Source: an uncultured Nitrospirota bacterium (lineage in GTDB: Bacteria; Nitrospirota; Thermodesulfovibrionia; Thermodesulfovibrionales; CALJEL01). From it: a stretch of DNA of 50,048 nucleotides. This document shows positions 725 to 49,412 of this stretch, one piece after another; position 1 is the first letter of the stretch, and every line of letters starts with the position of its first letter. The position numbers and the translations under genes are program-made. The stretch lies in the NCBI GenBank assembly GCA_947085365.1, contig CAMTWD010000009.1:1-50048 (forward strand), written 5' to 3'. Below the pieces are notes generated by a model. That model was not told the DNA's origin, ran no database searches, and worked only from the letters and a program-made list of their open reading frames with translations.

Positions 725-2346
725 CAAAGGTTAAGGCCCTTATATTCTTCAGAATAGGTTTTACAATACTTCTTCTGGGCTCTTTCCTTCTTTTAAAGCT
801 ACACCCATCGCCCCTGCCCTACCATCATATGATAAAATATCTGGTTCTTAGCATATTTATCCTCAGTTTTATTTATCTCCTGATCCTCCCATATATTAAA
901 AACCTCAAGGCCTTTGCCTATCTCCAGCTCATCATCGACTCCCTCTTCATAATAGCCCTTATATTCATGACAGGGGGAGTGGAGAGCTGGTTTACCTTTC
1001 TCATGATTCTGAATGTTATAGCTGGTAGTATCGTGATAGGAAGGACTGGAGGGTTTATCATCGCCACAATCCTCAGCCTTTTATACGGCCTTCTGATAGA
1101 CCTTCAATTTTACAAAGTGATCCCCCTTGCCTTTGATCCATCTTTAAAAGTCTATCATTTTCTCTATAACATCTTTATCCATATATCAAGTCTCTATCTT
1201 GTAGCGTATCTTTCAGGTTATCTAACGAGCAGGCTTCAGATGACCTACCAAAGACTAAAAAGCACAGAGCATGATCTTTCAGAGCTCAGGGCATTGAATA
1301 CCATTATTGTGGAGAATGTCCCCAGTGGCATCGTTACAACCAATGGTGAGGGGAAGATAATCGCCTTTAATAGTTGCGCAGAGCTGATTACAGAGATACC
1401 CAGGAAAGAGGCAATAGGGAAGTCTATCTACGATATCTTTCCTTTTCTGAGAAATTCCCTTGAGACCCCTGAGCTTCGTATCAGGACCGAGGGGAGTATA
1501 AGGGTAAAGGGTGGTGAGAAGTTCATAGGAATAACCATTAATAAACTCAGACATCACGATACCTCCCGTAGTGGCGGAGTAACTGTTGGATTGATTGGAG
1601 TCTTTCAGGACCTTACAGAGATCAAAAAAGCAGAGGAGGATGCAAAGAGGAGGGAGAAGCTTGCTGCCATAGGTGAGCTTTCCCGCAATATTGCCCATGA
1701 GATAAGAAACCCCTTAGCATCTCTGAAGGGTTCTATTGAGATCCTTATGGAAGACAGGATATCCCCTGAACAGAAAAAGAGGCTTATGGAGATTGCCCTC
1801 AAGGAGATGGAGAGACTCAATAAGATAATAACAGACTTTCTCATTTATGCGAAACCATCTCCTCTGCGCATTAAGAATTTCAATCTGATAGATCTTATTG
1901 ATGAGGTAATATTCATCCTCCGGAGCTCACCAAAGGCTGAGGGAGTAATGATTGAACGAGACCTTTCACCTGAACTTAGTGGCGAACTGACAGGTGAAGG
2001 GATGCTGATATCAGGAGATGAGGCACAGCTCAAACAGGTATTCTTAAATCTTGGTTATAATGCCCTTGAGGCCTTAGAGAACCAGCCATTCGCAAAGAGA
2101 CTCAATATATCCATCCAGAGGGAGGGAGAATTTGTTACCGTATCCTTTAAGGATTCAGGTCCAGGAATAAGGGAAGAAGACATTGATAAGATCTTCTATC
2201 CCTTTTACTCCACAAAAGAGGATGGCAGCGGACTCGGCCTCTCCATTGCCTATAAGATCATAGAGGAACATCATGGTAAAATATCAGTAAGGAGTTCTCC
2301 AGAAGGGACTGTATTTGATGTAATGATACCAATGGTGGCGAAGTAA
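721..2346 (+). CDS. Membrane sensor histidine kinase (PilS-like): about 6 TM helices, PAS-like region, HisKA and HATPase_c
   Basis: GTG start overlaps the pilC stop. H-box NIAHEIRNPLASL, N-box LNLGYNALEA, G-boxes DSGPGI and GSGLGLSIA. Sits between pilC and a sigma54 response regulator. The stop codon lies inside a family-A motif copy. Confidence 0.85.
   Translation: MTKVKALIFFRIGFTILLLGSFLLLKLHPSPLPYHHMIKYLVLSIFILSFIYLLILPYIKNLKAFAYLQLIIDSLFIIALIFMTGGVESWFTFLMILNVIAGSIVIGRTGGFIIATILSLLYGLLIDLQFYKVIPLAFDPSLKVYHFLYNIFIHISSLYLVAYLSGYLTSRLQMTYQRLKSTEHDLSELRALNTIIVENVPSGIVTTNGEGKIIAFNSCAELITEIPRKEAIGKSIYDIFPFLRNSLETPELRIRTEGSIRVKGGEKFIGITINKLRHHDTSRSGGVTVGLIGVFQDLTEIKKAEEDAKRREKLAAIGELSRNIAHEIRNPLASLKGSIEILMEDRISPEQKKRLMEIALKEMERLNKIITDFLIYAKPSPLRIKNFNLIDLIDEVIFILRSSPKAEGVMIERDLSPELSGELTGEGMLISGDEAQLKQVFLNLGYNALEALENQPFAKRLNISIQREGEFVTVSFKDSGPGIREEDIDKIFYPFYSTKEDGSGLGLSIAYKIIEEHHGKISVRSSPEGTVFDVMIPMVAK
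1569..1586 (+). repeat. Family-A motif copy (tagtggcggagtaactgt), in frame in the pilS-like gene (SGGVTV)
   Basis: Matches the consensus nRGTGGCGARGTAACAGT with 2-3 substitutions. Confidence 0.6.
1976..1993 (+). repeat. Family-A motif copy, degenerate (ttagtggcgaactgacag), in frame in the pilS-like gene (LSGELTG)
   Basis: TTAGTGGCGA core intact, 3' half diverged. Confidence 0.45.
2332..2346 (+). repeat. Family-A motif copy that provides the pilS-like stop codon (atggtggcgaagTAA)
   Basis: GGTGGCGAAGTAA read as V-A-K-stop. Abuts family-C element copy A. Confidence 0.7.
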
Positions 2347-2491
2347 ATGAGGCTGAAGGCTGAAGGCGATAGGCTGAAGTTAAAGACAAAATAGGCTGAA
2401 GGCAGTAGGCTGAAGTTAAAAAATAATTTTTGTTTTTTCTTCAGCCTTAAGCCTATCTTCAGCCTTCAGCCTAAAGCCTTAAGCCTAATTT
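2345..2491. repeat. Family-C hairpin element, copy A (GGCTGAAGG / CCTTCAGCC arms), about 147 bp
   Basis: The left arm is built from AGGCTGAAG 9-mers and the right arm from the complementary CTTCAGCC/CTTAAGCC units, around an A/T-rich loop. Termini are AAATGAGGCT...AGCCTAATTT. Flanked by GGTGGCGA motif copies. Confidence 0.8.
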
Positions 2492-2505
2492 GGTGGCGAG
2501 ACCAG
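2491..2505 (+). repeat. Family-A motif, partial (tggtggcgagaccag)
   Basis: GGTGGCGAG core at the right flank of family-C copy A. Confidence 0.5.
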
Positions 2506-2516
2506 AGGGAGATAAT

Positions 2517-3872: not shown

Positions 3873-4655
3873 AATCCTTTCAGGATGGGTATAGATATTA
3901 AATCTATCCCCTCTCATAAATCCTACAACTGTCATGCCAGCCTTTTCGGCGATGTCGAGTGCCCTTGTTGTGGGAGCCGTCCTAGAGACCACAAGGGGTA
4001 TTGACCATCGTGCACACTTACTGATCATCTCAGAAGAGAGTCTTCCACTGGCAAACATTATCTTACCGCCGAGTTTTATATCCTCAAGGACTGCATACCC
4101 GATAACCTTATCTATAGCATTGTGTCTTCCTATATCCTCAGCAAAGGCAATCAATATCCTTCCATCAGAAAGGGCTGCACTGTGGATACAACCTGTGGAT
4201 TTATATAGATCTGACCTCATCTGGAATTCATTGAATAGATTCTTCAATACTTCAGGCCTAACCCTTAAGTCCTTGTATCCTACATCCCTGATCTCCTTTT
4301 TCTCAAAGGTAACCCCTCCTGCACAACCAGAGGTAATTGTTACCTCGCCACCAAGTGCTGTTACCTCGCCACTAAGTTCAGATACCACATCCACCACTAT
4401 CTCCTCTCCGTAAACTATCTCCATCCTCTCAGCACACCAGGAGCCTTTAATAATCTCCTCTGTAAGGAGAAGTCCCACCACGAGCTCCCTCACCATCAGA
4501 GGTGTGCAATAGAGCCTCAATAGATCCCTGCCATTAACCTTTATCCTCAGGGCCTTCTCCACAGCAACAGGGTCTTCCATCTCTTCAAAGATAACATCCT
4601 TCTCCTTCAGTCTTACCCTCTTTACCTTTCTCTTCAATGTAGCATTCATCGCCAA
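3867..4655 (-). CDS. fdhD: Formate dehydrogenase accessory sulfurtransferase FdhD family protein
   Basis: Signature EDIGRHNAIDKVIGY, SGRLSSEMISK, VSRTAPTTRALDIAEKAG, NIYTHPERI. Carries two tandem 21-nt family-A copies in frame (SGEVTALGGEVTI). Confidence 0.85.
   Translation of the reverse strand: MAMNATLKRKVKRVRLKEKDVIFEEMEDPVAVEKALRIKVNGRDLLRLYCTPLMVRELVVGLLLTEEIIKGSWCAERMEIVYGEEIVVDVVSELSGEVTALGGEVTITSGCAGGVTFEKKEIRDVGYKDLRVRPEVLKNLFNEFQMRSDLYKSTGCIHSAALSDGRILIAFAEDIGRHNAIDKVIGYAVLEDIKLGGKIMFASGRLSSEMISKCARWSIPLVVSRTAPTTRALDIAEKAGMTVVGFMRGDRFNIYTHPERIL
4336..4377 (-). repeat. Two tandem 21-nt family-A copies inside fdhD
   Basis: attgttacctcgccaccaagt + gctgttacctcgccactaagt, read on the gene strand as SGEVTALGGEVTI. 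Confidence 0.9.
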
Positions 4656-4663
4656 CTCCTAAT

Positions 4664-5326: not shown

Positions 5327-5343
5327 ATATTTTGTTATTTTAA

Positions 5344-6696
<1,353 letters not shown>

Positions 6697-12889: not shown

Positions 12890-12925
12890 TTTGGTGGCGA
12901 AAGTAACAGTTGGCGAGGTTAAGGG
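12861..12925 (+). repeat. Truncated right half of a family-C element plus two family-A copies at the cobA/hemD 3' end
   Basis: tcttttctttttcttcagcc...ttggtggcgaaagtaacagt tggcgaggttaaggg. Supplies the last codons and the stop region of cobA/hemD, and abuts the convergent regulator's stop. Confidence 0.7.
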
Positions 12926-14358
12926 TTAAAGGTGTTTTCCGTGCTATAAGGACTGAGCCTGATCCCAAGCTGCTTTAACTTTCTATAAAGGGCTGTTCTT
13001 TCAAGACCTATTGCCTCAGCCGTTTTTGAGATATTCCAGTTGTTTTCCTGGAGCCTTTTGATAATAAAGTCCCTTTCAAGGGCATCTCTGGCCTCTTTAA
13101 GGGTCTTAAATTCAAGATAGGATTGATGTTGGTGGCGAAAGTAACAGTTGAAGAGACTCGATTCCTGGCATAGTGGCGAGGTAACAGTTGGTGGTGAGGT
13201 AACAGTAAAGAGACCTGTTTTGAGGTCAGAGGCTGTAATCACCCCCTTTTGGCACATTATTACAAGCCTCTCTACAAGATTCCTCAATTCCCTTACATTT
13301 CCAGGCCAGTCGTAGGTGGATAAAGACTTAAGGGCATCCTCTGATATAGCCTTTGGGGTCTTTCCATATTCAGCAGCTATAAGCTCAAGGAAGTGCCTTA
13401 CAAGTAAAGGTATATCCTCCTTCCTTTCCCTGAGTGGAGGGACCCTCAGTGGTATGACATTTAGTCTATAGAATAGATCCTCCCTAAAGTTTCCCTTTCT
13501 CACCTCCTCTTGGAGGTCTTTATTCGTAGCAGCTATAATCCTTACATCCACCTTTATATTCTTGCTTCCACCAACCCTCTGAAACTCCCTTGTCTCTATG
13601 GCCCTCAGAACCTTTGCCTGGGCATCCATGGACATATCACCAACCTCATCAAGGAAGAGTGTTCCTCCATCAGCAAGTTCAAATTTCCCCTTTTTCCTCT
13701 CGACGGCTCCAGTAAAGGCCCCTTTTTCGTGGCCAAACAATTCACTCTCTATAAGCTCCTTTGGAATGGCAGCACAGTTGACCTCCACAAAGGGCCCACT
13801 CCGTCTTGGACTCCTTTCATGGATCAGCCTTGCCACGAGCTCCTTTCCTGAGCCACTTTCACCAGTTATGAGGACTATACTGTTGGATGAAGCCACAAGG
13901 TCTATCTTGGACCTGAGCTCTCTTATAGCTGGAGATTCTCCAATGAGTTTATACCTCTTTGTGGCATCCTCTTTAAGGGACTTAAGGGCCCCTTCAAGAT
14001 TTGCCATCTCAATTGCCCTTTTGACAGTTATTAAGACCCTTTCAAGAGATAGGGGCTTTTCAAGAAAGTCGTAGGCACCCAGTTTTGATGCCTTTACTGC
14101 CAGCTCTATTGTTCCGTGGCCTGATATCATGATCACCGGGACCTCCGGCCTTCTATCCCTCATTATCCTCAGTGCCTCTATCCCATCCATCTTTGGAAGC
14201 CATATATCAAGAAGCACAAGGTCAGCAGAATCAAGGTGTTCTAAACCTTCTTCAGCATCCTCTGCTGTTATTACCTCGTATCCTTCGTCCTCAAGGATTC
14301 CCTTGAGGCTCTCCCTTATACCCTCCTCGTCATCTATAACAAGTATGAGATAAGACAT
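12919..14358 (-). CDS. Sigma-54-dependent response regulator (NtrX/AtoC type)
   Basis: Receiver (ILVIDDEEG, LLDIWLPKMDG), AAA+ domain (GESGSGKE, ESELFGHEKGAFTGA) and C-terminal HTH (ISKTAEAIGLERTALYRKLK). Three family-A copies sit in the AAA+/HTH linker. Confidence 0.9.
   Translation of the reverse strand: MSYLILVIDDEEGIRESLKGILEDEGYEVITAEDAEEGLEHLDSADLVLLDIWLPKMDGIEALRIMRDRRPEVPVIMISGHGTIELAVKASKLGAYDFLEKPLSLERVLITVKRAIEMANLEGALKSLKEDATKRYKLIGESPAIRELRSKIDLVASSNSIVLITGESGSGKELVARLIHERSPRRSGPFVEVNCAAIPKELIESELFGHEKGAFTGAVERKKGKFELADGGTLFLDEVGDMSMDAQAKVLRAIETREFQRVGGSKNIKVDVRIIAATNKDLQEEVRKGNFREDLFYRLNVIPLRVPPLRERKEDIPLLVRHFLELIAAEYGKTPKAISEDALKSLSTYDWPGNVRELRNLVERLVIMCQKGVITASDLKTGLFTVTSPPTVTSPLCQESSLFNCYFRHQHQSYLEFKTLKEARDALERDFIIKRLQENNWNISKTAEAIGLERTALYRKLKQLGIRLSPYSTENTFNP
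13129..13206 (+). repeat. Three family-A copies (antisense to the gene) in the linker of the NtrX-like regulator
   Basis: ttggtggcgaaagtaacagt ... atagtggcgaggtaacagt tggtggtgaggtaacagt. The gene strand reads TVTSPPTVTSPL...CYFRHQ. Confidence 0.9.
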
Positions 14359-14382: not shown

Positions 14383-16548
14383 TTACCTTTCTGGCAACTC
14401 AATAACAAATATGGCCCCTCTGGGGGTGTTATCCTTTACCTTTATAAAACCCCTGTGCTCTGTTACAATCCTCTGGGCAATGGCAAGACCCAGCCCAGAA
14501 CCACCTTTTTTTGTTGTGAAATGGGGCATGAATAACTTATCTTTTATTTCGTCAGGTATACCCGGACCATCATCAGCTATAGAGACGATTATCTTTTCGC
14601 CATTAAGTTGGGAGAGGGATATGTATATATTTCCTCTGGCCTCATTGCTGTGGGTGGCGAAAGTAACAGTTTCGGTGGCGAAGGTGATTGCCTCAATAGA
14701 ATTATCCATAATATTTATGAAAACCCTCTTGATCTGCTCAGGGTCCACCTCTGCCACCACCGCCTCGTCAGGAAGACTGAGATGAATGTTTATCTCTTTG
14801 AAACCCATGTAAAGATTATATACATCCCTAAGGATATCCCGCATATCCACAGGCCTCTTTTTTATCTGGGGCATCCTGCCAAATTGCGAAAAGTCCGAAA
14901 CGAGTCTTCTTAAACTCTCCACCTCTTTTATTATTGTTTTAGTGGAACTTTCAAAGACCTCATCAAAATCACTTTCTTTATTCTGCCATTTCTTTATAAG
15001 CCTCTCTGTAGAGAGTTTTATAGGGGTAAGGGGATTTTTCACCTCGTGGGCAATCCTTGAGGCAATCTCCTGCCATGCCATTGCCCTCTGGGCATTCACG
15101 AGGTCAGTAATATCATCAAAGACTACCAGCAATCCAATAATAGAGGAACCAGTTTCCTCCCTCCTCAAGGCTGTTATAAACACCCTGAGTATAAGAGATC
15201 TCTCTTTAATATTAATCCTTATCTCTTTCTCAATCCCTCTCAATTCCTTAATCCTTATCCCTTTTATAAGGTTTTCCAGTTCTTCAGATCCAATCGATTC
15301 AAGAAGTTCCCTGTAGGATCTACCCACAAACCCTGCGGCATCTACAGAAAGGATCCTTTCTGCAGCCCTATTCATGGAGAGGATCGTGCCTGAGCCATCA
15401 ATAAAGAGTACGCCTGTATTGATGTTCTCAAGGATACTTGAGAGTCTTATCCTCTGTGCCTCGGCCTCCATATAGGATTCCTGCAGGCGCTTCTTGCCTT
15501 CTCTTAATTGGCCAACCATCGTATTAAAATTCTCGATAAGATAACCAATCTCATCATTCCTGTTCTCCTCAGGAATTATCCTTACATCAAGGTTTCCTGA
15601 GGCTACCTTCATTGTTGCCTCTGTCAATTCCCTCACCGGTTCTGTAATCTTCTTTGAAATCCTCAGGGCTGCCCAGAGTGCAAGCATTATAATAAGGAGG
15701 GTAAAAAAGCCAAAGGTCATAACAAAATTTACTCTAAGAGGGAATTTCCACTTAAGTTTTAAGGAAAGCTCTTCATAATCCTTTTTGAGATTTTCAACTA
15801 TTAGTGGAATATCCTCTTGAACCTTTAAAGAACCCTTGAGAATATATACAGGGCCATCACTATTTGGTGGCGAATGTAACAGTTGAGGATTCTTAACCCT
15901 TACGGCAGCCCTTATATATTCTCCCTCTGGAGACTTAAATACATCTGATGCCTCACCCTTTAAGAAGGCCTCCTTTGTAAGTTCATCTGTATTGGTGGCG
16001 GATGAAGCAGTTGTGAGATCAAGGATTTCCCATTTGATATCTTCTTTACCCTCCTCACCTGTTACTTCTGCCACTGACATGATACCCTTAGAAGTAGAAA
16101 GGTATCGAGCCCTCCTTTTTGCCTCAGAAAGGAGATACTCCTTCTTCTCTTCATAATATATCTTTGCCAGCCTTAAGGTATTCTCAAGGGAGCTCAGGCT
16201 TTGAGGTGTTAGCCATTTTTCAATATAACCTGTTACAAGGCCACTTCCCAGGGCAAAGAGAAATATACTTGGTAAAAGGATAAGGATCAGAAAGATACTG
16301 ACAAGCTGTATCCTGAACTTATGACCTGGTACATTCCTTTTTCTATCAATAAAAAGCCTCAGGATATTCTTACCCACATAAAATAGGAGGATCAGAAGGG
16401 CAAGGAGATTGAGATTTATTCCTAAGAGAAAGAGCATTGCATAAAGGGGTTCATTACCGAGTTTAATGAATCTCGTAAAAAGAAATATATTGACCCCCAC
16501 AAATATGGCAAGAAGAGGCAGTATCAGTAGAAGTTTATAGAACCTCAT
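14383..16548 (-). CDS. NtrY-like membrane sensor histidine kinase (HAMP-PAS-HisKA-HATPase)
   Basis: N-terminal TM helices, HAMP-like segment, PAS, H-box RIAHEVKNPLTPI, N-box NIMDNSIEA, G-boxes DDGPGIP and GGSGLGLAIA. Contains four motif-derived inserts. Confidence 0.9.
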   Translation of the reverse strand: MRFYKLLLILPLLAIFVGVNIFLFTRFIKLGNEPLYAMLFLLGINLNLLALLILLFYVGKNILRLFIDRKRNVPGHKFRIQLVSIFLILILLPSIFLFALGSGLVTGYIEKWLTPQSLSSLENTLRLAKIYYEEKKEYLLSEAKRRARYLSTSKGIMSVAEVTGEEGKEDIKWEILDLTTASSATNTDELTKEAFLKGEASDVFKSPEGEYIRAAVRVKNPQLLHSPPNSDGPVYILKGSLKVQEDIPLIVENLKKDYEELSLKLKWKFPLRVNFVMTFGFFTLLIIMLALWAALRISKKITEPVRELTEATMKVASGNLDVRIIPEENRNDEIGYLIENFNTMVGQLREGKKRLQESYMEAEAQRIRLSSILENINTGVLFIDGSGTILSMNRAAERILSVDAAGFVGRSYRELLESIGSEELENLIKGIRIKELRGIEKEIRINIKERSLILRVFITALRREETGSSIIGLLVVFDDITDLVNAQRAMAWQEIASRIAHEVKNPLTPIKLSTERLIKKWQNKESDFDEVFESSTKTIIKEVESLRRLVSDFSQFGRMPQIKKRPVDMRDILRDVYNLYMGFKEINIHLSLPDEAVVAEVDPEQIKRVFINIMDNSIEAITFATETVTFATHSNEARGNIYISLSQLNGEKIIVSIADDGPGIPDEIKDKLFMPHFTTKKGGSGLGLAIAQRIVTEHRGFIKVKDNTPRGAIFVIELPER
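14650..14690 (+). repeat. Two family-A copies inside the HATPase domain of the NtrY-like kinase
   Basis: gtgggtggcgaaagtaacagt ttcggtggcgaaggtgattg. The gene strand reads ITFATETVTFATH, directly after the N-box. Confidence 0.8.
15863..15883 (+). repeat. Family-A copy in the NtrY-like sensor region
   Basis: tttggtggcgaatgtaacagt. Confidence 0.75.
15991..16011 (+). repeat. Family-A copy, degenerate, in the NtrY-like sensor region
   Basis: attggtggcggatgaagcagt. Confidence 0.5.
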
Positions 16549-16563
16549 TCTTACCTCGCCACC
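16549..16563 (-). repeat. Family-A copy forming the entire 15-nt spacer between the DUF4390-like gene and the ntrY-like gene
   Basis: Minus strand reads TGA-GGTGGCGAGGTAAGA-ATG. The GAGG within the motif sits at SD distance from the ATG. Confidence 0.75.
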
Positions 16564-17202
16564 TCATTCTCCGCCTATTCTGAATACAGGGGACTCCCTC
16601 GATACAGAAAACTCCTTTTCAGGGACAAAAAACAGAAGATACCCCACCACAGGAGGAAGCCTCCTGAGCCTTGACTCCACAGTGACTTTTATATAATAAT
16701 CCCCTGGGGCAAGCCCCTTGATATTTAAGAGGGGGAGGGACTTTATCTCCCTCATCTCCTTTAGCATGGATTCAAAACTCTTATACCTTTTTTCAATAAT
16801 ACGCCTTCTGTTTCTATCGTAGGAATGGAGGATGTATTCACCTTTAATAACATCTCCTACTATCTTTCTTTCAATAGAATTTCCAAATACATACTCATCA
16901 GCCCAATTCCTCCAGACCTTGAAGAGGTCTATATAAAAGATGAGCTCCTTCTGAACACCGTTCTTTGCTTCCTTGACGAAAGACTCATCAAGGATTACAG
17001 AGGTAGAAACAACAAGTTCATCGCCATTAATCCTCACATCAAGAGAACCTATCTCTGCAGCAAGACCTGATCCTGTCATGTATAGAATAAAAAGGCCTGA
17101 AAGGAGTAAAATAATAGGAAGGCTCAGACTGTTACCTCGCCACTGGGCGAGGTAGAGTGGGCCTCTCTTAGGGGATTTTCCTATGCAGATGAGGAAGACC
17201 AT
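16564..17202 (-). CDS. DUF4390-like exported protein encoded upstream of the NtrY-like kinase
   Basis: N-terminal signal/TM segment, position immediately upstream of the ntrY-like gene, and size typical of DUF4390. The exact start is uncertain because the 5' region is built from motif copies. Confidence 0.5.
   Translation of the reverse strand: MVFLICIGKSPKRGPLYLAQWRGNSLSLPIILLLSGLFILYMTGSGLAAEIGSLDVRINGDELVVSTSVILDESFVKEAKNGVQKELIFYIDLFKVWRNWADEYVFGNSIERKIVGDVIKGEYILHSYDRNRRRIIEKRYKSFESMLKEMREIKSLPLLNIKGLAPGDYYIKVTVESRLRRLPPVVGYLLFFVPEKEFSVSRESPVFRIGGE
17127..17160. repeat. Inverted (REPIN-like) pair of family-A copies in the 5' part of the DUF4390-like ORF
   Basis: gactgttacctcgccactg overlapping ctgggcgaggtagagt. 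Confidence 0.8.
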
Positions 17203-17257: not shown

Positions 17258-17743
17258 ATGGAACTTAAAACAGTCAAGATAGGTATTCCCGAGGGCTGTA
17301 ACATAATCCTCGGACAGACCCACTTTATTAAGACCGCTGAAGATCTTTATGAAGTGATTGCCACCACAGTACCGGGAGCCGAATTTGGTATAGCCTTCAC
17401 AGAGGCCTCAGGCCCCTGTCTTATAAGAACAGAGGGCAATAATGATGAGCTTATAAATGCCTGTGTGAAGATTCTTCAGGATATAGGGGCTGGTCATATA
17501 TTTTGTATCCTTTTGAGAAGGGCCTATCCAATAAATATCCTGAATCAGATAAAGGCCTGTCCGGAGGTCTGCAGGATATTCTGTGCCACTGCCAATCCCC
17601 TTGAGGTTATCGTCTGTGAGACCTCCCAGGGTAGGGGTATAATAGGTGTTATTGATGGCTTTCCACCAAAGGGAGTTGAAGGCCCTGAGGATAAGAGAAA
17701 GAGAAGGGAATTCCTAAGGAAGATAGGATATAAATTAGGCTGA
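17258..17743 (+). CDS. Adenosine-specific kinase family protein (PF04008-like)
   Basis: Family-like N-terminus (MELKTVKIGIPEGCNIILGQTHFIKT) and size. The SD is provided by GGCGAGGAGG. The TGA stop lies inside a family-C hairpin element. Confidence 0.6.
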   Translation: MELKTVKIGIPEGCNIILGQTHFIKTAEDLYEVIATTVPGAEFGIAFTEASGPCLIRTEGNNDELINACVKILQDIGAGHIFCILLRRAYPINILNQIKACPEVCRIFCATANPLEVIVCETSQGRGIIGVIDGFPPKGVEGPEDKRKRREFLRKIGYKLG

Positions 17744-17818
17744 AGGCTTAAGGCTGAAGAAAAAAGACAAAAATTATTTTTAAACTTCAGCCTATCGCCT
17801 TCAGCCTTAAGCCTAATT
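17732..17818. repeat. Family-C hairpin element, copy B, about 87 bp
   Basis: AAATTAGGCTGAAGGCTTAAGGCTGAAG - A/T loop - CTTCAGCCTATCGCCTTCAGCCTTAAGCCTAATT. Contains the TGA stop of the upstream gene. No family-A flanks. Confidence 0.8.
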
Positions 17819-17837
17819 ATTGAGGGAGGATAACCAG

Positions 17838-18242: not shown

Positions 18243-18273
18243 TTTGTGGCGGAGTAAGTTGGTGGCGAGGTAA
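18243..18273 (+). repeat. Two family-A copies downstream of yjbQ
   Basis: tttgtggcggagtaag ttggtggcgaggtaa. Confidence 0.75.
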
Positions 18274-18366
18274 ATGAGGTTGAAGGCAGTAGGCTGAAGA
18301 AAAAAACAATAATCCTGTCTTTGTCTCTTTTCTTCAGCCTTCAGCCTAAAGCCTTAAGCCTAATTT
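18272..18366. repeat. Family-C hairpin element, copy C, about 95 bp
   Basis: AAATGAGGTTGAAGGCAGTAGGCTGAAG - loop - CTTCAGCCTTCAGCCTAAAGCCTTAAGCCTAATTT. Bracketed by GGTGGCGAGGTAA and AGTGGCGAGGTAA. Confidence 0.85.
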
Positions 18367-18401
18367 AGTGGCGAGGTAACAGTGGGTGGCAAAGTAACAG
18401 T
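18364..18401 (+). repeat. Two tandem family-A copies. The second provides the GTG start of the 285-aa ORF.
   Basis: tttagtggcgaggtaacagt gggtggcaaagtaacagt. Confidence 0.9.
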
Positions 18402-19239
18402 AGAGATTGCCAGATTAAAGGAGGAGATTAAAAGACTCAGGAAGGTCTTGAGGGATATCTCCCCCAGCCTCGAGGCCCTTCTCAGAAAGAGGGGGCTCAG
18501 GATTTATAAGAAAGAACCTTCAGAAGACCTCCTTTTACCAGATCCTCATTATATTGACCAGTATTACCAGAGACTCCAGAAGTATTCCTTCAGACTCTTC
18601 CTGAGAGATGTAATAAAATACCAGAAGGGTTTTTCCCTTGAGGATGTAACAAGATATGCTACAGAAGAGGTGACGGCCCAATACATCTCCTATCTTGAGG
18701 AGATAGGGCTGATTGAGAGGTCAGGGAAGAATAGATTCTTTCTGAGAAGACCTGTCAGGAGCTTTGGTGAGACCCTTGAATGGTTTTTTGCCGAGCTCTT
18801 AAAGAGGGAATTCTTTATGGAGGCTACCTGGGGAGTAAGATTTAAAGATACTGAGAAGAGGACCTTTCAAGACATTGGTGAGATAACAGTAGGGGGAGAC
18901 TTTGATGTGATAGCAAAATTTAACGGCTCAGTACTCTATGCGGAGGTAAAATCCTCTCCCCCAAAGCAGATATACCAGGAGGAGATTAAGGCCTTTTTAA
19001 AGAGGGTAGAGCTCCTGAAACCCGAGATAAGCATATTCTTCATGGATACAGAATTGAGGATGAAGGACAAGATAGTGCCCATGTTTGAAGAGGAGATCGG
19101 AGAAGGACTCGAACGGGTTGAAAGGGAGATATTTCACAAGGATTATCACCTTTATATAATGAATTCAAAAGAGAGTATCCTCCACAACATTGAGACCATC
19201 CTTTCATGGTATCATAGGCATAAAAGGATGGCGAGGTAA
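18382..19239 (+). CDS. Hypothetical protein: coiled coil, winged-helix-like region and a PD-(D/E)xK-like C-terminal region
   Basis: Long ORF. GGDFDVIA...YAEVKSS resembles a D...ExK nuclease-fold motif. The only plausible start is a GTG inside a motif copy, and the TAA stop is inside another copy. Confidence 0.5.
   Translation: MGGKVTVEIARLKEEIKRLRKVLRDISPSLEALLRKRGLRIYKKEPSEDLLLPDPHYIDQYYQRLQKYSFRLFLRDVIKYQKGFSLEDVTRYATEEVTAQYISYLEEIGLIERSGKNRFFLRRPVRSFGETLEWFFAELLKREFFMEATWGVRFKDTEKRTFQDIGEITVGGDFDVIAKFNGSVLYAEVKSSPPKQIYQEEIKAFLKRVELLKPEISIFFMDTELRMKDKIVPMFEEEIGEGLERVEREIFHKDYHLYIMNSKESILHNIETILSWYHRHKRMAR
18874..18890 (+). repeat. Family-A copy, degenerate, in frame in the 285-aa ORF (IGEITV)
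   Basis: attggtgagataacagt. Confidence 0.55.
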
Positions 19240-19293
19240 GAATGAGGTTTGGCACTGTTGCTTCGCCACCAAGCCCAGTGGCGAGGTAACAGT
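19226..19293. repeat. Three family-A copies (forward, reverse, forward). The second and third form a REPIN-like hairpin.
   Basis: ggatggcgaggTAAg (stop of the upstream ORF); cactgttgcttcgccaccaag; ccagtggcgaggtaacagt followed by AGGAGG and the ATG at 19304. Confidence 0.85.
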
Positions 19294-19303: not shown

Positions 19304-19501
19304 ATGCAGAAGATAGAGGCCTGTGCCATATGTGCCTGGAGGCAGAACTGCCAGAAGAAGTTTTCTCTTTCAGGCAGGTCTCTGCATTGCCCTGAATTTG
19401 TAAGGGATATAAGCATTGAATCCCCACTCATCAGTGGCGAAGGTAACAGTGGCGAGGTAACAGTTGGGGATCATAAAAGACTTGAGGGAGAAGAAAAATG
19501 A
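19304..19501 (+). CDS. Small Cys-rich hypothetical protein (65 aa)
   Basis: The ATG is preceded by AGGAGG. Cys pattern CAICAWRQNC...CPEF. The C-terminal third is encoded by two motif copies (SGEGNSGEVTV). The stop overlaps the fba ATG (ATGA). Confidence 0.45.
   Translation: MQKIEACAICAWRQNCQKKFSLSGRSLHCPEFVRDISIESPLISGEGNSGEVTVGDHKRLEGEEK
19431..19464 (+). repeat. Two overlapping family-A copies in the small Cys-rich ORF
   Basis: tcagtggcgaaggtaacaGTggcgaggtaacagt. Confidence 0.9.
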
Positions 19502-20763
19502 GTTCCCCTATTAGTTCGCCACTAATTGATCAGAGGGTTTATGAGGCAATATTCCTTGAGGATGATGAGAAAAAGAGAAGGGCCCTTCTTCAATTGAAGG
19601 AGGAGGCAAAGGCAGAGGGCATAATACCATCATCTATATATCCCCTTTACAAGAAGATGGCAGAGAGCTACCCAGGATTTACCATTCCTGCTATAAACAT
19701 AAGGGGACTCACCTATGATTTTGCAAGGGCGGTTTTTAAAAAGGCTATGGAACTTAATGTGGGGGCCTTTATCTTTGAGATTGCCCGTTCAGAGATAGGG
19801 TATACAAAACAGAGGCCCCTTGAATATTGTGCGGTAATCTTGGCTGCAGCCCTCAGAGAGGGATTTCGTGGTCCTGTCTTTCTTCAGGGAGATCACTTCC
19901 AGATTGTTAAAAGGAATTTTGAAAAGGATCCTGAAGCTGAGGTAAATTATCTCAAGGGATTGATCAAGGAGGCAATAGAGGCAGAGTTTTACAATATAGA
20001 TATAGATACCTCCACCCTTGTTGATCTATCAAAGGAAGAGATAGAGGAACAGCAGAGACTGAACTTTGAATACACAGCACTTTTTGCTGAATACATAAGG
20101 TCTTCTCAGCCAGAAGGTGTAACTATATCCATTGGTGGAGAGATCGGAGAGATCGGACACAAAAATAGCACACCTGAGGAATTGAGGGCCTATCTGGATG
20201 GTTTTAAGAAGGTCTTTAAAGGTAAAGATGGACTGAGTAAGATAAGTGTCCAGACAGGCACGAGCCATGGAGGGGTTGTCCTTCCTGACGGAACCTTAAA
20301 GGAGGTAAATATTGATTTTGAGACACTGAGAACCCTTTCAGAGATTGCAAGGAGGGAATACGGACTTGCTGGAGCAGTTCAACACGGAGCATCCACATTG
20401 CCAGAGGAGGCCTTTGATATCTTTCCTCAGGTAGGGACGGCAGAGATCCATCTTGCCACAGGTTTTCAGAATATAATCTATGAAAGCAGGGCCCTTCCGG
20501 ATTCCTTCAGGAAGGAGGTATATGAGTATCTGAAAAGGGAGTTTAGCTCAGAAAGAAAAGAGGGCGAGACAGAAGAACAGTTTATCTATAAGATAAGGAA
20601 AAAAGGGTTTGGTGCCCTTAAAAAGAGGTGGTGGGATCTGCCTGAGGAGACGAGGGCCTCTCTGAGAGAGGAGCTTTCAGAAAGATTCGGATTACTCTTT
20701 AAAAAACTGAAGGTTGTTGATACAAAAGAACTTGTGAAGACCCTTACCTCAGTGGCGAGGTAA
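19498..20763 (+). CDS. fba: Class II fructose-bisphosphate aldolase family protein (long form)
   Basis: Class II aldolase-like blocks (FLQGDHFQ, VQTGTSHGG, AVQHGASTLP). Adjacent to pfk. The stop codon is the TAA of a motif copy (SVAR*). Confidence 0.75.
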   Translation: MSSPISSPLIDQRVYEAIFLEDDEKKRRALLQLKEEAKAEGIIPSSIYPLYKKMAESYPGFTIPAINIRGLTYDFARAVFKKAMELNVGAFIFEIARSEIGYTKQRPLEYCAVILAAALREGFRGPVFLQGDHFQIVKRNFEKDPEAEVNYLKGLIKEAIEAEFYNIDIDTSTLVDLSKEEIEEQQRLNFEYTALFAEYIRSSQPEGVTISIGGEIGEIGHKNSTPEELRAYLDGFKKVFKGKDGLSKISVQTGTSHGGVVLPDGTLKEVNIDFETLRTLSEIARREYGLAGAVQHGASTLPEEAFDIFPQVGTAEIHLATGFQNIIYESRALPDSFRKEVYEYLKREFSSERKEGETEEQFIYKIRKKGFGALKKRWWDLPEETRASLREELSERFGLLFKKLKVVDTKELVKTLTSVAR

Positions 20764-20767
20764 CAGT
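20751..20767 (+). repeat. Family-A copy providing the fba stop codon and lying 2 nt from the pfk ATG
   Basis: agtggcgaggTAAcagtaATG. Confidence 0.9.
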
Positions 20768-20768
20768 A

Positions 20769-29414: not shown

Positions 29415-29434
29415 TTTAGTGGCGAGGTAACAGT
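29415..29434 (+). repeat. Family-A copy between ORF100 and aprB
   Basis: tttagtggcgaggtaacagt. Confidence 0.9.
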
Positions 29435-37174: not shown

Positions 37175-37214
37175 TTCAGTGGCGAAGTAACAGTCTTAGT
37201 GGCGAGGTAACAGT
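37175..37214 (+). repeat. Two tandem 20-nt family-A copies between the CBS gene and hppA
   Basis: ttcagtggcgaagtaacagt cttagtggcgaggtaacagt. Confidence 0.95.
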
Positions 37215-39340: not shown

Positions 39341-39360
39341 CTAAAGTGGCAAAGTAAAAG
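39341..39360 (+). repeat. Family-A copy, degenerate, just after the hppA stop
   Basis: ctaaagtggcaaagtaaaag. Confidence 0.45.
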
Positions 39361-39396
39361 GGGCTGACCTAAAAGGTCAGCCCTATTTTTTGTTTT
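39360..39396 (+). terminator. Intrinsic terminator after hppA
   Basis: GGGCTGACC-taaaa-GGTCAGCCC stem-loop followed by TATTTTTTGTTTT. Confidence 0.8.
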
Positions 39397-39422
39397 CAAA
39401 AGGGGTAAACACCTTTGTTCCC

Positions 39423-39440
39423 CTAAGTGGCGAAGTAACA
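39423..39440 (+). repeat. Family-A copy upstream of the ykgJ-like gene
   Basis: ctaagtggcgaagtaaca. Confidence 0.7.
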
Positions 39441-39458
39441 AACGTTCGGAGGTTTTAA

Positions 39459-40244: not shown

Positions 40245-40342
40245 CTTACTGGTGAAGTAACAGTTACTCAGTCGCGAGGTAACAGTCGGGGGTACACAGG
40301 GGGAAACAAAGTTCCCCCCTGTGAGACCCCCGAGGTAACAGT
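40245..40342 (+). repeat. Composite repeat (two family-A copies, family-B G-rich palindrome, family-A half copy), intergenic copy
   Basis: cttactggtgaagtaacagt tactcagtcgcgaggtaacagt CGGGGGTACACAGGGGGAAACaaaGTTCCCCCCTGTGAGACCCCCG aggtaacagt. Confidence 0.9.
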
Positions 40343-40372: not shown

Positions 40373-41089
40373 CTAAGGAATTTGTGAGGTAGTATTGATG
40401 AGTTCTACAACATATCTGAAGAAGTTGAACGATAGGTCATCGGGCATATCAATTATTGAAGCACCGCAGATATAGTTTTGGTCTTTTTTTATGCAGTAGG
40501 CAATCCTTACCTTTATAACGGTTTGATTGCCTGCCCTTCTTGACGAAAGTCTGATATTGTAAAGACTGCCCGGTTGAAGGGCTTGATCTGTAATGAATTG
40601 GAGACCATGCTGGCTGAGATTTGTAATATGACCATTTAATATCCTCCCTTCAGCATCAATAATGAGTTCGATGTATCTTTGAAGGATTTCTGGAAGGGGA
40701 TAGCGGATTTCCTTTCTCTTTTCCTGGTATTGAGTTAGTGGAGAAGTAACAGTACTTAGTGGCGAGGTAACAGTCGGGGGTACACAGGGGGGAACATTCG
40801 TTCCCCCCTGTGAGACCCCCGAGGTAACAGTTGGTTTGAAGGAGAGTCTGAGGTCATGGGCTATCTGGATATATTTTATCCAGTTCATGATTTCATAAAG
40901 ACCCCTCACTGCTTCTTTGATTCTGATGGCGAGTTCTGGGTTCTCTGTTTCTCTCAGTATCTGCTGGAGGATTTCCGATGCGCCAAATGTCTTATTTATC
41001 AAAAGGTCAGAGAGGCATTCTATCTGTTTTTTATTATTTATAAAACAGCCCTCCATCCCCCCACATATGCGGTTACATCTTTCAAGCAC
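40373..41089 (-). CDS. PilZ-domain protein with a helical N-terminal region
   Basis: The C-terminal half has PilZ-like RxxxR and D/NxSxxG elements (RKEIRYPL, ITNLSQHGLQF). A 33-aa linker is encoded entirely by a composite repeat. GTG start overlaps the upstream stop, and the start is uncertain. Confidence 0.6.
   Translation of the reverse strand: MLERCNRICGGMEGCFINNKKQIECLSDLLINKTFGASEILQQILRETENPELAIRIKEAVRGLYEIMNWIKYIQIAHDLRLSFKPTVTSGVSQGGTNVPPCVPPTVTSPLSTVTSPLTQYQEKRKEIRYPLPEILQRYIELIIDAEGRILNGHITNLSQHGLQFITDQALQPGSLYNIRLSSRRAGNQTVIKVRIAYCIKKDQNYICGASIIDMPDDLSFNFFRYVVELINTTSQIP
40735..40831 (+). repeat. Composite repeat (same architecture as 40245-40342), in frame inside the PilZ-protein ORF
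   Basis: ttagtggagaagtaacagt acttagtggcgaggtaacagt CGGGGGTACACAGGGGGGAACattcGTTCCCCCCTGTGAGACCCCCG aggtaacagt. Confidence 0.9.
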
Positions 41090-41800: not shown

Positions 41801-42062
41801 GTCCCAGGAGTCTCTTTTTTAAGAGTTCTGGATCATAACCCTTTATCACATCAGCTATAACAAGTGTTGGATATGTCTGCTGGGGATTGTATTTTTGAAG
41901 TTCCTTTGTCATAAGCCACTGCTCTCCGCTGTCAAGGGTATCAACCTCTATGACCTCATGGGGAATCTGATTCTCATCAAGAAATTTCTTTACCTTTTTA
42001 CATACAGGACAGGTGCTCAGGGCAAATAGTGTAACCTTCCTTACTGTTACCTCGCCACCCAC
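41790..42062 (-). CDS. Glutaredoxin/thioredoxin-like small redox protein
   Basis: VTLFALSTCPVCKK CxxC motif, YPTLVI block, 90 aa. Overlaps the FTR-like gene by 11 nt. The only start candidate is a GTG inside a motif copy. Confidence 0.7.
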   Translation of the reverse strand: MGGEVTVRKVTLFALSTCPVCKKVKKFLDENQIPHEVIEVDTLDSGEQWLMTKELQKYNPQQTYPTLVIADVIKGYDPELLKKRLLGHDS

Positions 42063-42100
42063 TGTTACCTCGCCACTGGCAACTGTTACCTCACCACCAA
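42041..42100 (-). repeat. Three tandem family-A copies (periods 18 and 21 nt) at the 5' end of the grx-like gene
   Basis: ttactgttacctcgccaccc actgttacctcgccactggc aactgttacctcaccaccaa. The GTG start of the grx-like ORF lies at the junction of the first and second copies. Confidence 0.95.
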
Positions 42101-42481: not shown

Positions 42482-42520
42482 ACTCTTACCTTACCACCCA
42501 AATTGTTACTTCGTCCCATC
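42481..42520 (-). repeat. Two degenerate family-A copies downstream of atpE
   Basis: cactcttaccttaccaccca aattgttacttcgtcccatc. Confidence 0.45.
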
Positions 42521-43748: not shown

Positions 43749-43767
43749 TCGGTGGCGAAGTAACAGT
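43749..43767 (+). repeat. Family-A copy in the atpB/DUF1015 divergent intergenic region
   Basis: tcggtggcgaagtaacagt, preceded by a ttactgtt half site. Confidence 0.85.
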
Positions 43768-43854
43768 GCGGCAACAACTCCCGGGTTTAAAAAAATATTG
43801 AAGCACAAAAGGATATATGGTATCATAAATTGGGCTTGGGGTCTTGAGAGGCCT

Positions 43855-43877
43855 CAACTGTTACATTCACCACCGAT
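43855..43877 (-). repeat. Family-A copy, degenerate
   Basis: caactgttacattcaccaccgat. Confidence 0.65.
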
Positions 43878-43900
43878 TTGATTCTGTCAAAGAAGATTCC

Positions 43901-43920
43901 TTTAGTGGCGAGACAGTAGT
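43901..43920 (+). repeat. Family-A copy with an internal deletion, followed by a stub of the family-B palindrome
   Basis: tttagtggcgagacagtagt followed by cgggggta. Confidence 0.65.
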
Positions 43921-43941
43921 CGGGGGTATAAAGGAAGAGAG

Positions 43942-45279: not shown

Positions 45280-45301
45280 AGATTAAAGAGTTAAAGCAAT
45301 T

Positions 45302-48042
<2,741 letters not shown>

Positions 48043-48051
48043 GGGGGAGAG

Positions 48052-49275
48052 ATGGCAAGGAACGATATTACTCCAATGAATGTCCTTAACAAACTTTCTA
48101 TTGAGGATCTTAACATAAAAGACAAAAGGGTCTTCATCAGGGCTGATTTCAATGTGCCCCTTGACGATAATCAGAATATTACTGATGACAGGAGAATCCG
48201 TTCTACCCTTCCTACTATCAATTATGCGATAGATGAGGGCGCAAAGGTTATCCTGGCATCTCATCTTGGAAGGCCAAAAGGGAAGGTTGATCCAAGATAC
48301 AGTCTGAGACCTGTTGCCAAGAGATTGAGCAGGCTTCTTAATAAAGAGGTCCTCTTTCTTGATGATTGCATAGGAGGGGATGTTGAGAGGGCTGTAAAGG
48401 CAATGGGTAAGGGTGATGTTATCCTCCTTGAGAACCTGAGATTTCATCCAGGGGAGGAGAAGAATGATGATAATTTTGCTAAGGCCCTTGCCAGTCTCGC
48501 TGATTATTATGTAAATGATGCCTTCGGAACAGCCCATAGAGCCCATGCCTCAATAGTAGGCGTTCCTAAATATATTCCAGGGGCAGCTGGTTTCCTGATG
48601 AGAAAGGAGATACAATACCTGAAGGGTGCGGTGGAGTCACCCGTGAGGCCCTTTGTGGCGATACTCGGGGGAGCAAAGGTCTCTGGTAAGATAGGCGTTC
48701 TTGAGAACCTTGCCCAGAAGGTGGATAAGGTGATAGTAGGAGGTGGCATGGCCTTTACATTTATAAAGGCTATGGGATATGAGGTGGGTGACTCCCTTGT
48801 TGAAGAGGATATGATAGACCTTGCTGTGAGGATAATGAATAGATTGAAGGAGAGCAGGGTCAAGTTCTATCTTCCTGTAGACTGTGTGATAGCCCAATCT
48901 ATTGAAAAAGGTGCTGAGACAAAGATAGTGCCTGTGCAGGAGATCCCAAAGGGCTGGAAGGCCCTTGATATAGGGCCTGCCTCTTCAAGACTCTTTTCTG
49001 AGGTTATACAGGATGCAAAGACTATTATATGGAATGGACCTATGGGTGTCTTCGAGATAGATGCCTTTTCAAGGGGGACTTTTGCTGTGGCAAGGGCAGT
49101 AGCTGATGCCTATGCCCTTACAATTGTTGGTGGTGGAGATACAGACCTTGCTGTGCACAGGGCTGGTGTCTCTGATAGCATCTCCTTTATCTCTACAGGT
49201 GGTGGAGCAGCCCTTCAGCTTTTGGAAGGGAAGGAGCTACCAGGGATTGCTGTACTGAAAGACAAGACTTCTTGA
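48052..49275 (+). CDS. pgk: Phosphoglycerate kinase
   Basis: [33 protein letters not shown]. Confidence 0.95.
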
Positions 49276-49302
49276 GGAATTTAACGATAAAATAAAGAAG
49301 TC

Positions 49303-49412
49303 TCAGCAGGGCATAAGACCATTAAACACACTATTACTTCGCTACCGCTGGACTACTTGAAAGAAAAAATTCTCCTTCCTAGCGAAATAATAAGGTCTTA
49401 TCGCCCTGCTGA
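49303..49412. repeat. Long imperfect hairpin (about 110 nt) between the convergent pgk and speH genes, with family-A-like arms inside
   Basis: Outer arms are tcagcagggcataagacc (49303-49320) and ggtcttatcgccctgctga (49394-49412). Inner arms are tattacttcgcta (49332-49344) and tagcgaaataata (49380-49392). Confidence 0.6.

Follow-up and report, generated by a model that had tools for sequence, protein, structure and literature searches.

A small dispersed repeat of Thermodesulfovibrionales with the behaviour of a mobile DNA element, among the smallest known

A contig of 50,048 nt from a Nitrospirota metagenome-assembled genome (MAG), hereafter the window, carries a motif with a core of 16–17 nt about once per kilobase, both between and within its genes. 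We propose that this motif is probably the core of a selfish, ultra-short dispersed repeat that is specific to a clade of Thermodesulfovibrionales and was recently mobile. This judgement covers the reading of a selfish mobile repeat as a whole and is not attached to any single mechanism. In its behaviour the motif ranks among the smallest mobile DNA elements known. The window has a GC content of 44%, and its SerRS and DnaE proteins find their best matches in Thermodesulfovibrionales MAGs. Its gene content (sat-aprBA-qmoABC-hppA, together with pil, hem and glycolysis genes) is that of a sulfate-reducing member of this group.

The motif reads GTGGCGARGTAACAGT or, in a 17-nt variant, GTGGCGAARGTAACAGT. 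About 52 copies are found in the window, where roughly one would be expected by chance. A search for GTGGCGAGGTAACAGT with at most two mismatches returned 26 matches, 13 of them perfect, against an expectation of 0.03, and no shuffled sequence reached 26. A position weight matrix built from the GTGGCGAGGTAACAGT copies identified 43 sites of at least 10 bits (about one expected) and 27 sites of at least 20 bits (none expected). Nine further copies with a one-base insertion, GTGGCGAA[A/G/T]GTAACAGT, bring the total to 52, and counting partial and half copies raises it to about 60. The original prediction, made from the letters of the window alone, had given the same figure, and the abundance lies far above the shuffled null. 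Conservation extends beyond the core, with (c)TTR on the 5′ side and T/G-G on the 3′ side, and the inserted unit measures approximately 18–22 nt. The copies are split into 34 on the plus and 18 on the minus strand; within open reading frames (ORFs), 16 are in the same sense as the gene and 12 are antisense. They are also strongly clumped, with 15 neighbour pairs no more than 30 nt apart where 1.6 are expected and a maximum of 8 was reached in 5000 simulations. The direct tandems that had been predicted were all recovered, at 4336–4372 (period 21), 37179–37214 (period 20) and 42043–42097 (periods 18 and 21).

Scans of the window with Rfam and for tRNAs gave no matches, so the motif does not belong to any known RNA gene. 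In the 17-nt variant (core GGTGGCGAAGG), the opening 11 nt appear to match exactly a stretch that is universally conserved in 16S rRNA, near E. coli position 720. This likeness is probably a coincidence and would become relevant if an RNA template were sought. We reject an assembly artefact, for which the original prediction had allowed, because a separate Logan assembly contains the same copies and because assembly k-mers greatly exceed the repeats in length. The motif was moreover seen across JGI, ENA and NCBI assemblies.

Turnover of whole units is visible between closely related strains, a feature that could not be seen from the window alone. Over 22 kb, the loci L134 and L135 (L-numbers denote loci of relatives) share 98.5% identity, and both are syntenic with the dnaE-qmo region of the window. 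They differ by the presence or absence of a single unit at L134 6031 (18 nt), 9715 (21 nt) and 13232 (21 nt) and at L135 2442 (18 nt), and by a 12-nt insertion within a motif copy. At one further site, a patch of 16 nt of motif stands in place of 13 nt of unrelated sequence between common TTGG...TGG flanks. Together, motif events account for about half of all indels of at least 6 nt between the two loci, the remainder lying mostly in other short tandem arrays. In the L003 group, four strains with a mutual identity of 98.5–99.3%, L137 is set apart from L003, L136 and L138 by two 21-nt units, located in the ribonucleotide reductase and fdhD genes. The L134/L135 and L003-group loci come from the metagenomes JGI 3300066320 and ENA ERZ27247213 and ERZ27247226. 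Likewise, one of the five members of a DnaE protein cluster contains an extra GEVTVLS. The closest strain to the window, Logan ERR3478709, could be compared over 4.8 kb at 98.3–99.7% identity, and no unit indel was found in so short a stretch.

Three of the seven unit events occurred without an adjacent copy (L134 6031 and columns 660 and 8955 of the L003 group). Where an extra unit adjoins a resident copy, it differs from it (GTGGC and GAGG against ATGGT and GAAG), and simple slippage duplication is therefore not an explanation. New units resemble the consensus of their lineage and not their neighbour, which suggests that they were copied from a non-local template. A target-site duplication of the form TTG...TTG was ruled out for the unit, since filled and empty sites, when compared, disagree with it.

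These events bear on a reading without any dedicated mobility, according to which a few ancient insertions were amplified by replication slippage, and the dispersal of the motif reflects shared ancestry and chance convergence in linkers. Tandem arrays with polymorphic unit number are indeed present, and other slippage-prone arrays of 7–9-nt units also vary between strains. However, slippage does not account for units at sites with no neighbouring copy (L134 6031; L003 660) or for added units unlike the adjacent one, nor for some 50 dispersed sites in 50 kb, in both orientations and with 13 perfect 16-mers, when outgroups have zero copies. We consider this reading highly improbable.

Individual copies diverge at least as fast as their flanks. 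Between L134 and L135, divergence is 4.7% inside and 1.1% outside copies that are recognisable in either strain (p = 5e-7), and 2.4% inside against 1.1% outside for those recognisable in both (p = 0.046). Two other strain pairs likewise show no excess conservation of the copies, and 4 of the 24 differences between the window and L142 (Logan ERR3478709, 98.3% identity) fall within one 18-nt copy.

The lineages differ in both the density and the type of their copies. In a scan of one genome per species, a 19-mer of the motif was found in at least five different Thermodesulfovibrionales/Thermodesulfovibrionia MAGs. Three isolated matches elsewhere, among the matches listed, are compatible with the approximately 17 expected by chance. 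At loci chosen via SerRS or DnaE and not via the motif, density per kb is 0.94 in the window, 1.1–1.3 in L134 and L135, 0.75 in L003 and 0.42 in L001. It is 0 in L139, whose SerRS is 78% identical, and in L140 and L141. The dominant subfamily is the 16-nt GAGG form in the window, the 16-nt GAAG form in L001 and L003 and the 17-nt GAAAG form in L134 and L135. Among viral contigs, 102 contain one match each and none contains several, which corresponds to background and gives no link to phages. A Bacillota MAG contig of 35% GC (JAEZFR010000275.1; L017) carries a single perfect copy at 2616–2631 with typical TTG...GG flanks, which could be due to chance, mis-binning or transfer.

Lineage variants at such a density are also what a signal for DNA uptake or kin recognition might produce. 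A competence-pilus receptor would bind the motif, and biased uptake and recombination would drive it to about one copy per kb and create lineage 'dialects'. The motif shares with DNA uptake sequences (DUS) and uptake signal sequences (USS) its density, its occurrence in both orientations and in ORFs, at permissive positions, as well as in intergenic DNA, and GAAG, GAGG and GAAAG variants that follow lineage as DUS dialects do. The type IV pilus genes pilB, pilT, pilC, pilS and pilR lie in the window and syntenic loci. In addition, a 1.5-kb segment with two copies is 97.8% identical between lineages that are otherwise 72–83% identical, and new neisserial DUS often arise from recombination and not from point mutation (PMC2397512). 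Neisserial DUS are 97% conserved compared with 85% for their flanks (PMC2397512), and residues encoded by USS are conserved like other residues, yet lie preferentially at poorly conserved positions (PMC2817400). Whereas DUS and USS surpass their flanks in conservation, do not clump in tandem and do not usually change protein length, the motif departs from them in all three respects. Its copies diverge by 2.4–4.7% against 1.1% for the flanks, form tandems with periods of 15–22 nt (15 close pairs against 1.6 expected) and are length-changing insertions of whole units. Density also varies about 3-fold among the sampled motif-bearing lineages and drops to 0 at the syntenic locus of the relative with 78% SerRS identity. 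The 16–17-nt core exceeds known uptake cores, and type IV pili are not specific to competence. We therefore judge an uptake signal improbable, and membership in this class, one of three analogues named in the original prediction, was not borne out.

The segment shared between lineages is a Fer4-gene region (L001 18352–19850 and L003 19826–21308), and its identity points to recent recombination between lineages. In L137, the Fer4 gene has deletions of 640 nt and 141 nt. A tandem duplication of exbB-exbD-tonB in L134 (3302–6894), with no counterpart in L135 (5060–6909), could be a strain difference or an assembly effect.

Within genes, the copies have been filtered by reading frame. Fully 28 of the 52 (54%) lie wholly in ORFs and none interrupts the frame, in agreement with the prediction that about half are coding and frame-preserving. 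All five peptides predicted for the open frames were seen (SGEVTV, WRGNS, TVTSP, the LLPRH type and CYLAT), SGEVTV and TVTSP being the commonest. The sixth frame, GTG-GCG-ARG-TAA, is closed as predicted; to this we add that it does occur, but solely where it supplies the natural stop of three genes (2335, 19228 and 20752). About 95% of the window is ORF, and motif density is 9.1 per kb in intergenic DNA against 0.59 per kb in ORFs, an approximately 15-fold difference (p = 2e-17). The 11-kb accA-adk-sat-aprBA-qmoABC block contains two copies, one intergenic and one a weak match of 10.4 bits in qmoB. Tandem periods in coding DNA are 15, 18, 21 or 30 nt, all multiples of three, whereas those in intergenic DNA include 20 and 22. 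Similarly, inserts bearing a hairpin (see below) are 54 and 57 nt long in ORFs, whereas the intergenic one measures 56 nt. This pattern is the hallmark of units that inserted in any phase and then came under purifying selection. It also argues that the coding copies are translated.

The peptides had been predicted to be extra residues, and alignments of SerRS and DnaE agree with this. SerRS has 448 aa compared with 421–422 aa in most Nitrospirota, the additional 27 aa being located at the tip of the N-terminal coiled coil that binds tRNA. Residues 70–98 of the query align to only five residues (71–75) of Aquifex SerRS (2DQ3). At this site, the P0005/P0007 lineage has the reverse copy only (TVTSPL) and P0002 has none, whereas in the window the reverse copy in serS is split by a forward copy. 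DnaE measures 1273 aa, against 1186–1262 aa in motif-bearing relatives and 1130–1150 aa in outgroup Nitrospirota, and all eleven of its motif copies are found in blocks missing from the outgroups. Compared with Taq Pol III alpha, these blocks map to a loop of the PHP domain and to the linkers that follow the HhH domain and precede the OB fold; the block at aa 85–96 corresponds to a gap. In relatives, other motif-derived peptides occupy the same permissive loops. These alignments show that the coding copies of SerRS and DnaE are true insertions in loops and linkers. The case of FdhD is less clear-cut, as its second copy overlaps native EV(I/T)ITSG residues, and this overlap suggests that the copy was captured through short homology.

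At four gene boundaries (20752–20771, 16545–16565, 2335–2350 and 19228–19243), the TAA of a copy is the stop of the upstream gene. Some of these copies may have been co-opted as junctions of stop codon and Shine-Dalgarno sequence, because the GAGG at 20752 sits 7 nt before the next ATG. The copies of the window are as follows.

1571–1586, plus strand: degenerate copy in a PilS-type histidine kinase gene, in frame (SGGVTV), 17.2 bits.
2335–2350, plus strand: gene-end copy whose GTG-GCG-AAG-TAA frame gives the stop of the kinase gene, followed by a AGGCTGAAG array.
4336–4372, minus strand: two copies in direct tandem with a period of 21, in frame in fdhD (SGEVTALGGEVTIT), the second of which overlaps the native EV-ITSG residues.
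5555–5613, no single strand: serS composite in which an old reverse copy (5555–5564 and 5600–5613) is split by a forward copy at 5570–5585 plus 14 nt.
12894–12910, plus strand: intergenic copy, 17-nt variant.
13132–13206, plus strand: 17-nt variant and two tandem copies (period 18), lying antisense in an NtrC-type regulator gene and keeping its frame (TVTSPPTVTSPL), in the linker before the helix-turn-helix.
14654–14670, plus strand: 17-nt variant in a sensor kinase gene, antisense, in frame (TVTFAT).
15867–15883, plus strand: 17-nt variant in the same sensor kinase gene as the copy at 14654, antisense, in frame.
16547–16562, minus strand: copy overlapping the start region of a kinase gene (GAGGTAAGAATG).
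17128–17153, minus strand: perfect copy and a partial arm of 9 nt in inverted orientation, within a DUF4390 gene and in its frame (WRGNS).
18262–18401, plus strand: half copy of gene-end type at 18262, a AGGCTGAAG-type array, and a tandem pair of period 18 (18368–18401) running into the start of ORF 18382–19239.
19228–19293, no single strand: gene-end copy giving the stop of ORF 18382–19239, followed by a head-to-head inverted pair at 19254–19293.
19434–19464, plus strand: overlapping tandem of period 15 that makes up the C-terminal tail of a small Cys-rich ORF.
20752–20767, plus strand: perfect copy whose TAA is the stop of an upstream aldolase-like gene, with GAGG 7 nt before the pfk ATG.
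22499–22514, minus strand: perfect copy in the PHP-domain loop of dnaE (NCYLATK), without counterpart in outgroups or Taq Pol III alpha.
24866–24958, no single strand: dnaE composite of an inverted pair, a 46-nt hairpin at 24901–24946 and a duplicated 10–11-nt GAAGTAACAGG, in frame, in the linker after HhH.
25140–25896, no single strand: six dnaE copies, at 25140 (minus), 25351–25388 (inverted pair), 25468 (minus), 25850 (plus) and 25880 (plus), all in blocks absent from outgroups.
29419–29434, plus strand: perfect intergenic copy adjoining a terminator-like hairpin, upstream of aprB.
37179–37214, plus strand: intergenic direct tandem with a period of 20, not a multiple of 3.
39346–39442, plus strand: two degenerate intergenic copies, at 39346 and 39427.
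40249–40342, plus strand: intergenic composite of a tandem of period 22, a 45-nt hairpin at 40287–40331 and a duplicated GAGGTAACAGT.
40738–40831, plus strand: composite of the same kind as at 40249, in a PilZ-domain ORF, antisense and in frame, of a tandem of period 21, a 46-nt hairpin at 40775–40820 and a duplicated GAGGTAACAGT.
42043–42097, minus strand: intergenic triple tandem, periods 18 and 21.
42482–42517, minus strand: two degenerate intergenic copies.
43752–43935, no single strand: intergenic group of a copy at 43752 (plus), a 17-nt variant at 43857 (minus) and a decayed copy with hairpin remnant at 43905–43935.
49330–49345, minus strand: degenerate intergenic copy.

The unit itself has no secondary structure. 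Single units of 22–24 nt fold at 0 kcal/mol, no better than shuffled sequences, and the unit lacks terminal inverted repeats; filled and empty sites show no duplication when compared. Folding is confined to inverted pairs. Two of the three pairs predicted from the letters, 19254–19293 and 25351–25388, are real and fold at –13.4 and –7.8 kcal/mol, whereas the third, at 17128–17153, consists only of a full copy and a 9-nt partial arm. In 301 kb of clade DNA, about 43 close pairs were found, of which about 30 are direct, with periods of mainly 18 nt (9 cases) and 21 nt (7 cases), and about 11 are head-to-head. The inverted pairs are mostly of the head-to-head kind, with spacers of 5–9 nt. Those in the window are more degenerate than other copies, with 2–3 mismatches each, while many single copies are perfect.

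This architecture can be compared with that of repetitive extragenic palindromic sequences (REPs) and their paired form, REPINs. REPs are palindromic, extragenic and mostly arranged as inverted doublets, and they flank a gene for a REP-associated tyrosine transposase (RAYT; PMC3116915). In a system of this type, a Y1 transposase (RAYT) or an IS200/IS605 TnpA would mobilise the motif in trans as single-stranded DNA, inverted doublets being active and singlets decayed. Like REPs and REPINs, the motif is short and clade-specific, with a 16-mer core, lineage variants and clusters that grew by insertion beside existing copies, and some of its head-to-head pairs, with their 5–9-nt spacers, form stable hairpins. 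A Y1 TnpA may also exist in trans, given that a polymorphic insertion sequence (IS) of the TnpB type occurs in these genomes. However, the unit is not palindromic (minimum free energy 0 kcal/mol), 54% of the copies lie in ORFs although REPs are extragenic by definition (PMC3116915), and inverted doublets are a minority, approximately 11 of 43 close pairs against about 30 direct ones. The inverted pairs are more degenerate than singletons, the opposite of what a REPIN would predict, and no Y1 gene was detected in the window or, by tblastn with IS200 and RAYT queries, in about 400 kb of relatives. A REPIN-like system is thus rather improbable, and the motif could not be placed in this second of the three predicted analogues.

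The TnpB-type element was itself examined. The window encodes a 561-aa TnpB-like ORF (Cas12f1-like TNB domain) at 45302–46987 on the plus strand, between a DUF1015 gene and the gene gap. Among relatives, a 1.65-kb TnpB IS (L003 18177–19825) is present in L003 and L137 and absent in L001, and this polymorphism indicates that IS605-family elements are active in the clade. The idea that the motif combines a TnpB target-adjacent motif with a guide (5′ TTR plus 16 nt) was dropped, as the motif is absent from the ends of the TnpB IS and the TnpB gene is not followed by a guide-like copy.

A second tiny element is nested in the motif. It is a near-perfect hairpin of 45–47 nt (–25 kcal/mol), with three intact examples in the window: in intergenic DNA (40287–40331), in the PilZ ORF (40775–40820) and, inverted, in dnaE (24901–24946). 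Each intact hairpin sits inside a motif copy and is flanked by a direct duplication of 10–11 nt. A fourth has decayed along with its copy (43905–43935, remnant 43921–43935). The flanking duplications share the variant bases of their locality (GAAGTAACAGG at either side in dnaE, GAGGTAACAGT in the other cases) and are therefore a target-site duplication (TSD) and not part of the hairpin element. In this way the motif also serves as a preferred target of this element. [quoted passage not shown] With MITEs it shares terminal inverted repeats (in the form of one long hairpin), a TSD, here of 10–11 bp, a fixed target and insertion in both orientations. Its 45–47 nt are however well below the size of named bacterial MITE families, which measure about 100–150 bp, it was found in this genome only, and no cognate transposase was found. 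The loci of relatives did not contain it, and a metagenome scan gave one unrelated chance match. The motif unit, in turn, is unlike MITEs in having neither terminal inverted repeats nor a TSD.

How the motif spreads can be outlined as a model. Whole units are written into the chromosome in either orientation, landing at virgin sites and, preferentially, beside or inside existing copies. The template would be either a further copy in the genome, reached by template switching over short homology or by a conversion-like patch, or a dedicated master molecule of RNA or DNA. In this reading, selection then purges an insertion if it disrupts the frame, places the TAA frame within a protein or falls in a constrained region. 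What remains in ORFs is only in-frame units of 18 and 21 nt in loops and linkers, besides the gene-end copies whose TAA serves as a stop and the approximately 15-fold intergenic excess. Surviving copies decay roughly neutrally. As to the copying step, we tentatively favour short-homology template switching or conversion-like patch copying between copies, while giving it less than even weight. An RNA-templated or other dedicated writing activity is a more speculative option that we hold unlikely, and a classical transposase or HUH enzyme, the latter being close to the REPIN-like system discussed above, is improbable. These degrees of belief overlap with those assigned to the separately weighed alternatives.

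A dedicated system for writing sequence in this clade would consist of a trans-acting enzyme and a master RNA or DNA template, which together repeatedly write an 18–22-nt cassette into nicks or breaks. We regard such a system as possible but unlikely; a reverse transcriptase or telomerase-like activity, or a site-specific nickase combined with templated repair, would be its candidates. It would prefer existing copies, and mutation of the master template would give rise to lineage-specific subfamilies. If true, this would be a new class of mobile DNA below the size of any transposon and a natural generator of in-frame peptide insertions within essential proteins.

Within the window, the densest motif cluster (9 copies in 1.2 kb) is located around an ORF at 18382–19239 on the plus strand. 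This ORF has no Pfam match and contains a GDFDVIA...YAEVK signature that is suggestive of a PD-(D/E)xK nuclease fold; one source labels a homologue 'Holliday junction resolvase-like'. We rejected it as a candidate for the machinery. Its 3293 homologues are spread across Nitrospirota, well beyond the close relatives, so it is not specific to the clade, and the densest motif clusters of relatives lie in other genes.

Several observations weigh against a selfish mobile repeat. The genes of the window include no Y1/RAYT transposase and no reverse transcriptase, and tblastn with IS200 and RAYT sequences against about 400 kb of related DNA gave no match, although this is a weak test. As the unit has no target-site duplication or terminal structure, classical transposition is unsupported. 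The strain-level indels are unrooted and may each be an insertion or a precise deletion, so that net insertion is proven by the deep outgroup comparisons only. Several unit events in L134/L135 and the L003 group are accompanied by clustered substitutions in the immediate flanks. Some presence/absence differences could have a purely recombinational origin, for example the import of variant alleles by transformation. Each density estimate is based on about 20–50 kb per genome. Finally, the 16 core positions are nearly invariant across species that are about 20% apart in SerRS. Such invariance needs continuing activity, homogenisation or recognition by a conserved factor, and hence the motif may have a function.

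One such function would be that of a chromosomal site selected at about one copy per kb, recognised by a nucleoid, segregation or recombination protein in the manner of Chi or of FtsK-orienting polar sequences (KOPS), or acting as a regulatory or terminator module. Alongside the near invariance of the core across species, several intergenic copies lie beside terminator hairpins or supply a stop and a Shine-Dalgarno-like GAGG. The core also opens with a GGTGG string reminiscent of Chi. Against this, the strand bias is only modest (34 plus to 18 minus; in ORFs 16 sense to 12 antisense), copies decay at least as fast as their flanks, and 16 nt far exceeds the length of Chi or KOPS. Tandems, nesting and presence/absence between strains are moreover unexpected for architectural sites. 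We consider a functional site very unlikely, and a selfish mobile repeat remains our preferred reading.

The prediction that the motif belongs to no standard annotation class proved right. It fits none of the three analogues that had been named. The third of these, the Rickettsia palindromic elements, are palindromic, measure about 150 bp and are inserted in frame in conserved protein genes at permissive positions (PMC10969869). The motif is likewise an in-frame selfish repeat at structurally permissive positions of conserved genes. However, it measures 18–21 nt, is not palindromic and is read in five frames, whereas the Rickettsia elements encode a conserved peptide module. The in-frame outcome is all that the two have in common, and membership is rejected.

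The closest analogue is the small dispersed repeats (SDRs) of cyanobacteria, which the original prediction had not considered. Elhai et al. reportedly described in 2008 eight such families (SDR1–8) of Nostocaceae, about 20–27 nt long, clade-restricted and apparently mobile, with no established mechanism. SDR5 is said to insert inside the highly iterated palindrome HIP1, SDR4–6 to share a hairpin, and SDRs to lie among heptamer arrays. The motif family is similarly ultra-short, dispersed, of high copy number and confined to one clade, its unit of 18–22 nt being slightly shorter than SDRs, and its presence or absence differs between relatives. It is nested in the same manner, the hairpin element in the motif and the motif in itself, as SDR5 is in HIP1, and it is associated with tandem arrays of 7–9-nt repeats. 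The differences are nonetheless considerable. The host belongs to the Nitrospirota, the sequence is unrelated, no hairpin is predicted for the unit, and the core of 16–17 nt is shorter. Essential proteins bear a massive in-frame load, with 11 copies in DnaE, and strain-level polymorphism is directly documented. With host, sequence and structure all different, the likeness to SDRs is one of analogy and not of membership by descent. SDRs were reported only in Nostocaceae (PMC5861425). Exact-sequence and keyword searches of the literature returned no description of the motif or of in-frame repeats in Thermodesulfovibrionales or Nitrospirota, and within these searches the family is undescribed so far.

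The 7–9-nt arrays are intergenic. In the window they occupy 2346–2500, 17731–17828 and 18272–18375 (AGGCTGAAG/CTTCAGCCT), and in relatives (GAGGTCAGA, TAGCGTGTAGCG) they occur at L001 8481–8600, L134 3554–3650 and L001 19356. They form long inverted repeats around an A/T-rich centre, often beside half a motif copy at the end of a gene. Their number of units differs from strain to strain, and they resemble the short tandemly repeated repetitive (STRR) arrays of cyanobacteria.

Ever since cyanobacterial SDRs were described, it has been a puzzle how elements of about 20 nt move, because they are too small to contain transposase-binding ends. A second, unrelated family in another phylum means that small dispersed repeats are no cyanobacterial oddity. 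What is new here is unusually direct evidence of recent mobility for a very small dispersed repeat. Its gain and loss between strains of 98–99% identity is visible in public metagenomes, which makes the phenomenon testable. In practical terms, the repeats inflate protein lengths and can mislead gene calling, where starts or stops fall inside repeats, as well as alignment-based phylogenies of the clade. The family is also a natural experiment on the tolerance of essential proteins for random in-frame peptides, with about 130 extra residues in DnaE and an extended tRNA-binding arm in SerRS.

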